Part shown: positions 37,865 through 38,122 of the stretch, piece after piece
Layout: every line of letters starts with the position of its first letter
Numbering within the stretch: the stretch's first letter is position 1
Sequence record: PQ330092
DNA from: Escherichia phage JP4
Strand: one strand, 5' to 3'
Length of the DNA: 64,000 nucleotides
The notes under the pieces: generated by a model
Told to the model about the DNA's origin: nothing
The model's input: the letters and a program-made list of their open reading frames with translations, nothing else
Databases searched by the model: none
Translations under genes and position numbers: made by a program

Positions 37865-38122
37865 ATGGCTGTAGGATACGCGAAAGATGGGGCCGAGCAA
37901 GACGAGATTAACGCAGTGATTCAGGCCGCCGTTAACCACGCTAGAAAGCAAATTAACGCACAAATAGAATCACTGATACATTGCCTCGACTGCGGCGATA
38001 AAATCCCTGAGAATCGACGCCAGGCCGTTATAGGGTGCATGTATTGTATTACTTGCCAGGAGGATCATGATAGTACTTTTAAAAGAGATCCGCGTAATTG
38101 TTGGCATAGATCTATGAGATAA
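37865..38122 (+). CDS. TraR/DksA-family C4 zinc-finger protein (85 aa)
   Basis: CLDCGDKIPENRRQAVIGCMYCITCQ matches the CxxC-N17-CxxC TraR/DksA finger with conserved IPxxR. Confidence 0.65.
   Translation: MAVGYAKDGAEQDEINAVIQAAVNHARKQINAQIESLIHCLDCGDKIPENRRQAVIGCMYCITCQEDHDSTFKRDPRNCWHRSMR

Follow-up and report, generated by a model that had tools for sequence, protein, structure and literature searches.

The zinc-finger gene and its genomic setting

The DNA analysed here, referred to throughout as the window, is a stretch of 64,000 nt from Escherichia phage JP4, and within it an ORF at 37865..38122 (+) runs from an ATG to a TAA and encodes 85 amino acids, exactly as had been given in a preliminary description of this sequence. 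The JP4 region is 90-98.5% identical to Asteriusvirus jumbo coliphages (UB, SP27, PBECO4, 121Q and others). The features of the locus, several of which are candidates read from the sequence, are collected in Table 1.

Table 1. Features at and around the zinc-finger gene of phage JP4, numbered from the first base of the window
Feature	Position	Strand	Remarks
One full direct terminal repeat unit, 20,114 bp	26792..46905		Holds the zinc-finger gene
Second repeat copy, start; ends at the window end after 17,095 bp	46906..64000		From self-alignment
Candidate early promoter of the two-gene unit, TTGACA-17-CATAAT	37538..37566	+	Has the AGTACTG spacer element
Second candidate promoter, TTGATC-16-TATAAT	37654..37681	+	10/12 positions
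48-aa ORF, PHROG 38664	37719..37865	+	Adjoins the zinc-finger gene 5'; TAA overlaps ATG (TAATG)
Shine-Dalgarno GAGG	37853..37856	+	8 nt 5' of the zinc-finger-gene ATG; read from sequence
CDS, YbiI-type DksA/TraR-family C4 zinc-finger protein	37865..38122	+	Orthologue of phage 121Q gene 294
Residues 1-12, MAVGYAKDGAEQ	37865..37900	+	Candidate channel-inserting tip; most conserved non-finger segment of the YbiI-type clade
C4 zinc finger C40-x2-C43-x17-C61-x2-C64	37982..38056	+	Pfam match, TraR alignment
I47-P48-E49-N50-R51-R52	38003-38020	+	Equivalents of TraR I44, P45, E46, A47, R48, R49
Residues 69-85, DSTFKRDPRNCWHRSMR, basic C-terminal tail	38069..38119	+	Nearly invariant in phage homologues; low model confidence
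Perfect promoter TTGACA-16-TATAAT	38130..38157	+	8 nt past the zinc-finger-gene stop
GNAT-type acetyltransferase, 118 aa	38187..38543	+	Directly 3' of the zinc-finger gene; own perfect sigma-70 promoter
Second zinc-finger CDS copy, 100% identical	57979..58236	+	In the other repeat copy, offset 20,114

Self-alignment of the window revealed that 26792..43886 and 46906..64000 are 100% identical over 17,095 bp at an offset of 20,114, and base 46906 aligns to base 1 of the fEgEco12, CRJP21 and E9.1 records, the start of which is the physical genome end. The exact repeat together with the coincidence of base 46906 and the genome-end start means that the window shows the direct terminal repeat (DTR) joined end to start; in fEgEco12 direct terminal repeats of 20,993 bp have been established by PhageTerm and restriction digests (PMC13070987). 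The start of the zinc-finger gene lies 11,073 bp in from the left physical end, that is from the first base of the repeat unit, and because of the direct repeat it is found twice in the window, as is every other feature within 26792..43886.

In phage 121Q dozens of small same-strand hypothetical ORFs flank gene 294, with a GNAT acetyltransferase lying 3' of it. The pairing of the zinc-finger gene with the GNAT gene is kept in Asteriusvirus and not in T4-like phages, where the site of the homologue is the early mobD/rI cluster of small ORFs; one Mosigvirus record has a truncated remnant in this mobD/rI cluster, 3' of an annotated T4-type early promoter. Elsewhere in the window about 12 paralogous ORFs, each some 390 aa long, lie in tandem at 7382..21652 (-); two of them were tested, and both gave matches to PHROG 4219, "regulator of chromosome condensation" (proteins with RCC1-like repeats), with E values of 1e-100 or better. 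A tRNA scan of the 64-kb window found no tRNA genes, and a defence or anti-defence role for the zinc-finger gene was rejected as the PADLOC matches are at noise level only (E about 0.006).

The N-terminus of the zinc-finger protein is conserved from residue 1 in both phage and bacterial homologues, dN/dS against the 121Q orthologue is 0.13, and in comparisons with T4-like homologues pN is only 0.22-0.26 at a distance where synonymous sites are saturated. The reading frame is considered real because of these three observations and the presence of a ribosome binding site (RBS), and by these sequence measures the ORF is confirmed as a gene under purifying selection. The many small accessory ORFs that surround it, and the truncated remnants found in some T4-like phages, might suggest a passenger ORF that is decaying or has no function, carried in a variable accessory region. 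This would seem very improbable given the dN/dS value, the full-length identity of 62-72% that is retained across phage genera despite saturated synonymous sites, and an RBS and start codon that are intact and match those of the homologues.

The stop codon of the 48-aa ORF and the start codon of the zinc-finger gene overlap, and for this reason the two genes are probably co-transcribed and translationally coupled. The 48-aa ORF is kept in 121Q as gene 293, however when upstream ORFs with overlapping start and stop codons were compared between the window, 121Q, VR26, STML-198 and KP15, it was found to be shared only with 121Q. A partner gene conserved across clades was therefore ruled out, the upstream ORFs being non-homologous between clades.

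Promoters and early expression

Perfect TTGACA-N15-19-TATAAT sites occur 23 times in the 64-kb window, where 0.24 would be expected. When at most one mismatch to TTGACA-N16-18-TATAAT is allowed there are 40 sites on the plus strand and 10 on the minus strand, which agrees with the figure of about 50 strong sigma-70 promoters previously put forward for this DNA. That raw count is inflated, however, because 17,095 bp of sequence are exactly duplicated within the window, and the non-redundant number of near-consensus promoters is 23 (+) and 5 (-), 28 in total. The DTR holds 20 of the 23 non-redundant plus-strand promoters. The regions upstream of the near-consensus promoters are A+T-rich, and the first seven bases of the discriminator contain between one and three G/C.

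Small ORFs on the same strand and consensus sigma-70 promoters are the hallmarks of early genes that are transcribed by the host RNA polymerase (RNAP), and it is reasonable to infer, from promoter type and gene organisation only, that the zinc-finger gene lies in the early region, as had originally been stated. Upstream of the 48-aa ORF are two candidate promoters for the two-gene unit (Table 1), whilst the perfect promoter found just past the stop codon of the zinc-finger gene starts the GNAT unit and marks the 3' boundary of the zinc-finger unit.

Several further features of the promoters were observed. The early promoters have an AGTACTG element in common just 5' of the -10 hexamer and make up a distinct family of the form TTGACA-N9-(T/C)AGTACTG-TATAAT, examples being found at 36439-36466, 37015-37042, 39168-39195, 40409-40436 and 43599-43626, and at 33913, 36753, 37015 and 44802 a second AGTACT lies immediately 5' of the -35 hexamer; the fixed position of this palindrome suggests that it may be an extra recognition element or the site of a regulator. 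There are four GATC (Dam) sites within 31 bp at 37629-37659, with a repeated TGATCA, and these overlap the -35 hexamer of the second candidate promoter. Terminator-like hairpins at 35875-35910 and 39895-39930, with similar ones at about 1111 and 2525, have a -35 hexamer TTGACT inside the stem, which is then followed by GCTATTAT or GCTATAAT, and these look like compact cassettes of terminator plus promoter placed between transcription units.

Family assignment and nearest relatives

The preliminary description had called the protein TraR/DksA-like, and the similarity to this family proved to be significant, with Pfam PF01258 (zf-dskA_traR) matching residues 39-68 at 37.1 bits (E 3.2e-9) against a curated gathering cut-off of 24.9 bits. 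A match to PHROG 54, "DksA-like zinc-finger protein", was obtained at E 2.2e-18. The RefSeq name of 121Q gene 294 is already "DksA-like zinc-finger protein", so the family assignment is correct and is already in public annotation.

Within the family the nearest known relative is the E. coli protein YbiI. In the PDB the YbiI structure 2KGO was matched at E 8e-12 and TraR (5W1S/6N57) at E about 1e-5; by phmmer the YbiI match spans residues 1-69, and the identity by BLASTP is 43%. The best-scoring NCBIfam model is the YbiI equivalog NF008243 / PRK11019, which covers residues 1-73 at 79.2 bits, below its cut-off of 96. The TraR models also fall below their cut-offs (TIGR02419, 50.7 against 59.7 bits; NF010268, 30.8 against 108 bits), as does the DksA model NF033459 with 12.7 bits against 105. 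Judged by these sequence and model matches the JP4 protein genuinely belongs to the DksA/TraR C4 zinc-finger family, and its closest relative is YbiI, not TraR. The initial description therefore holds for family membership, on both Pfam and Foldseek evidence, although not for TraR as the model, as YbiI is closer and the strict DxxDxA motif is absent.

Three groups of relatives can be told apart: five Asteriusvirus clusters with 89-95% identity, approximately 30 clusters from T4-like phages with 62-72% identity along the full length (Moon, MHG19, fHe-Yen9-01, VR26 and STML-198), and bacterial proteins of 88 aa, which are YbiI, with 42-51% identity. Invariant throughout this YbiI-type clade are M1, A2, G4, R27, C40, C43, I47, R51, R52, G57, C61, C64, Q65, D69 and R77. 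A third small subgroup of the DksA/TraR family, which differs from both the TraR and YbiI types, was also noted (P0067, P0079, P0086, P0108, P0123, P0126, P0127 and P0132); its members have MSGYGGPDD(E/D)A at the N-terminus and end in a conserved hydrophobic stretch (...KMLTKML).

A literature search on the function of YbiI returned only mentions of the sigma-S and Fur regulons and a single "data not shown" statement, according to which a dksA deletion strain, auxotrophic for amino acids, was rescued when YbiI was over-expressed (PMC2613031).

The zinc finger and proposed contacts with RNA polymerase

The CxxC-N17-CxxC finger and the IPxxR motif that had been recognised earlier are both found, the finger as C40-x2-C43-x17-C61-x2-C64 within the peptide CLDCGDKIPENRRQAVIGCMYCITCQ (residues 40-65) and the motif as IPENR at residues 47-51, equivalent to I44-R48 of TraR. 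All four cysteines C40, C43, C61 and C64 are invariant among 49 homologues. The extra cysteine C58 was ruled out as a metal ligand as it is not conserved in homologues, and although C79 and H81 of the tail are invariant in the phage clade, no complete second metal site can be argued for.

In TraR binding to the beta-prime rim helices depends on residues P43, P45 and R48, with alanine substitution of P43 weakening RNAP binding, and E46, R49 and K50 contact beta-prime Si3 (PMC9239242, PMC6970531). R51 and R52, which correspond to R48 and R49, are invariant in the clade, and P48 and E49, which correspond to P45 and E46, are nearly so; not conserved are TraR P43, which is replaced by a variable K46, and TraR K50, which is replaced by Q53.

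We would put at about even the chance that the zinc-finger protein binds RNAP's secondary channel and reprograms host transcription independently of ppGpp whilst phage promoters are spared. The gene would be transcribed, together with the upstream 48-aa ORF, by host E-sigma70 soon after DNA entry, and the zinc-finger domain would then dock where the secondary channel opens, on the beta-prime rim helices, via P48, E49, R51 and R52. The N-terminal helix would insert into the channel with the conserved acidic tip D8-G9-A10 foremost, acting without ppGpp in the manner of TraR and lambda Orf73. Initiation would be lowered at promoters with short-lived open complexes, such as those for rRNA and ribosomal proteins; phage promoters, with their consensus hexamers and A+T-rich discriminators, would stay active, and polymerase and resources would consequently be shifted to the phage.

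The N-terminal tip

The first 12 residues are the most conserved segment outside the finger, as expected for a functional tip. Its M1, A2 and G4 do not vary, most homologues have D at position 8 whilst a few have E, and G9 and A10 are nearly invariant, giving a clade-wide N-terminus of MAxG-(F/Y/W)-A-K-D-G-A-x-Q. The JP4 sequence MAVGYAKDGA fits the signature MAxG-(W/F/Y)-A-x-(D/E)-x-A; both this signature and the YbiI tail signature described below are derived from the present alignments and are not published definitions.

The strict DxxDxA motif was not found in the zinc-finger protein, the best reading being Y5-A-K-D8-G-A10, so that within the tip an acidic residue is conserved at position 8 only, just before G9 and A10. 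If D8-x-A10 is equated with D6-x-A8 of TraR then the position of the first Asp of DxxDxA is aromatic throughout the clade, and two extra N-terminal residues are implied. Among 112 representative relatives the G-aromatic-xx-(D/E)-x-A tip is found in 68 and DxxDxA in 20, and the distance that separates the acidic residue of the tip from the first Cys is most often 31 in both types (32 in the zinc-finger protein), a shared value that supports the equivalence. The alignments themselves place the N-terminus against TraR in four different registers: MAFFT at offset 0, HMMER at +3, BLASTP with D13 opposite D6, and motif spacing at +2. A match of the form V/A-x-E/D-Q/E-I/L at positions 11-15, shared by YbiI, TraR and VP882 Orf61, favours offset 0, and in this register neither TraR Asp has an acidic counterpart. 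As the four approaches disagree, no single register is chosen here for the DxA equivalence.

In TraR the N-terminal helix reaches the active site with S2 lying 4.3 Å from the Mg2+ (PMC9239242, PMC6970531), and D3 and D6 of DxxDxA are required for regulation (PMC9239242). In lambda Orf73 the substitutions D3N and D6N greatly reduce the inhibition of rrnB P1 (PMC9239242), and an NxxNxA variant of VP882 TraR has lost growth suppression (bioRxiv 10.64898/2026.07.27.740977). Departures from the motif can be tolerated: Gp34 of X. bovienii is without the first Asp (D3) and VHML Orf8 is extended at its N-terminus, and both still bind RNAP and inhibit rrnB P1 (PMC9239242). Their IC50 values are 8- to 16-fold above that of TraR, with 415 nM for Gp34 against 50 nM for TraR at rrnB P1 (PMC9239242). 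Because the tip motif of the JP4 protein is only partial, its effect may be weaker than that of TraR or different in kind.

A difference in kind could be that the protein, lacking both tip aspartates and a long C-terminal helix, is mainly an occupant of the channel and not an allosteric regulator like TraR, such that it excludes DksA(+ppGpp), GreA and GreB, or else uses its two additional N-terminal residues to affect elongation or the active site; the stringent response of the host would thereby be blunted during infection. The binding determinants of the globular domain are conserved when strict DxxDxA is not, the tip aspartates of DksA are needed for function and are dispensable for binding (PMC9239242), the activity of tested homologues is cut by N-terminal extension or loss of motif residues (PMC9239242), and there is a precedent for a pure competitor in Rnk (PMC9239242, section 18). 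We nevertheless regard it as doubtful, if worth keeping in mind, since conservation in the clade is strongest at the tip, which argues for an active role, and since the reported rescue of a dksA deletion by over-expressed YbiI needs a positive action like that of DksA (PMC2613031, data not shown).

The C-terminal tail and predicted structure

The mean pLDDT of an AlphaFold2 model made from 49 homologues is 71.8, with block means of 75-86 for residues 11-70 falling to 59 for residues 71-80 of the tail and 46 for residues 81-85. The predicted architecture is a long N-terminal helix (residues 6-28), the zinc knuckle, a helix at residues 62-68 and a poorly defined tail. The helix predicted after the finger has only 7 residues, next to a tail modelled with low confidence, whereas that of TraR has 16, and this TraR helix (residues 58-73) contacts the beta-lobe Si1 (PMC9239242, PMC6970531). 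When the model was searched against the PDB with Foldseek, YbiI came first and RNAP-bound TraR next (TM 0.56 normalised to TraR, rmsd 3.7 Å over 64 columns), followed more weakly by DksA (7KHI, 5VSW), and the search returned nothing significant beyond these three proteins.

The tail has no counterpart in TraR. Its phage form, FKRxPRNCWHRSMR, is found in Asteriusvirus and many T4-like phages and is a diverged form of the YbiI tail YNRRGSKDSQLR, with R77, R85 and the hydrophobic position 84 of PRNCWHRSMR aligning to YbiI. An intermediate that bridges the phage and bacterial forms is found in the tail of protein P0062, HNRKVWHRSMR, and the homologue in Klebsiella phage KP15 has the bacterial form. 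Essentially all phage-form tails belong to one 50%-identity cluster among 524 related clusters. A literature search found no experimental work on proteins with the phage-type tail, and nothing on this clade in lytic phages.

A 54-aa ORF of the Mosigvirus Escherichia phage vB_EcoM_SA35RD (L002:1453-1617, PHROG 25948) retains of the YbiI-type protein no more than the second CxxC and the FKREPRNCWHRSMR tail, fused to an N-terminus that is unrelated; it is either a decaying remnant or a tail that works as a module on its own.

Such a distinct tail raises the alternative that the YbiI-type branch has a target other than RNAP, the fold being a scaffold from which the tail and the distinct tip bind another host partner. 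It would fit the near invariance of the tail across Asteriusvirus and T4-like phages in the lack of any TraR counterpart, the retention of the second CxxC and tail alone by the Mosigvirus ORF of PHROG 25948, and the observation that some C4-finger homologues do not act like DksA (PMC9239242). It would seem unlikely when the equivalents of the TraR residues for the rim helices and beta-prime Si3 are invariant, the significant fold matches are to RNAP-channel binders only, and the conserved neighbourhood points to no alternative partner, with upstream ORFs that are non-homologous between clades.

Standing of the functional reading and its implications

Binding in the RNAP secondary channel with ppGpp-independent reprogramming of the host is, from the comparisons above, a plausible reading, weakened by the incomplete tip motif and the short C-terminal helix of the model. 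It is known that some C4-finger homologues without the motif and the C-terminal helix are inactive, and not all act like DksA/TraR (PMC9239242). There is a slim prospect, which we rate no higher than that of a target other than RNAP, that phage YbiI-like proteins are a distinct class of early effector whose aromatic-xx-D-G-A tip and basic tail contact RNAP or another host machine in a manner unlike TraR or DksA; the tail could for example make a contact near the beta-lobe or sigma region 1.1, or the protein could form a complex with the product of the coupled upstream gene.

TraR-family proteins are known to provide plasmids and temperate phages with a stringent-like programme that does not need ppGpp (PMC9239242). 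If the proposed function is true then virulent jumbo and T4-like phages also use this strategy, in the present case with a jumbo-phage gene that is diploid in the terminal repeat and set amid consensus promoters of the host type, and there would also be a handle on the function of the uncharacterised bacterial YbiI family. As it stands the result is a correct homology call that is already annotated in relatives, and its practical value is modest; what might be new here is confined to the conserved tip and tail of the YbiI type.

Comparison with known systems

YbiI is the top Foldseek match and has the same finger, the same N-terminal signature and a C-terminal tail of which that of the JP4 protein is a diverged variant. 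It is however encoded by a sigma-S-dependent chromosomal gene (PMC4447067), whilst the JP4 gene is phage-borne and lies behind sigma-70 consensus promoters. With F-plasmid TraR (5W1S, 6N57) the protein shares in its predicted structure the order of N-terminal helix, C4 knuckle and C-terminal helix, as well as IPExRR, CxxC-N17-CxxC and an origin in a mobile element. It differs from TraR in that identity amounts to only about 26-36%, the stretch from the N-terminus to the finger is 2-3 residues longer, the predicted C-terminal helix is short and there is an additional basic tail of 17 residues. DksA has in common with it the C4 finger family PF01258 and a channel-inserting helix, but at 151 aa is distinguished by its two-helix coiled coil, the residues that bind ppGpp and a DxxDxA tip, where the JP4 protein has 85 aa and a single N-terminal helix.

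The phage proteins lambda Orf73, P2 Orf82, VP882 Orf61 (TraR_VP882), VHML Orf8 and Gp34 all bind RNAP and inhibit rRNA promoters without ppGpp (PMC9239242), and lambda Orf73 raises burst size (PMC9239242). Gp34 with its missing first Asp and VHML Orf8 with its N-terminal extension resemble the JP4 protein in these respects, and both are active at lower potency. The active homologues are carried by temperate phages, and their motif is DxxDxA or nearly complete, in contrast to the zinc-finger protein described here, which belongs to virulent jumbo and T4-like phages.

Finally, VP882 TraR works with a partner, QisA, that is encoded directly upstream (bioRxiv 10.64898/2026.07.27.740977), and the JP4 locus resembles this in having a small ORF directly upstream which is in this case probably translationally coupled. 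The 48-aa ORF was compared with QisA and no similarity was found, and it is not conserved in the contexts of the T4-like homologues; given the VP882 precedent of an upstream partner, its product is a lead as a possible partner of the zinc-finger protein.
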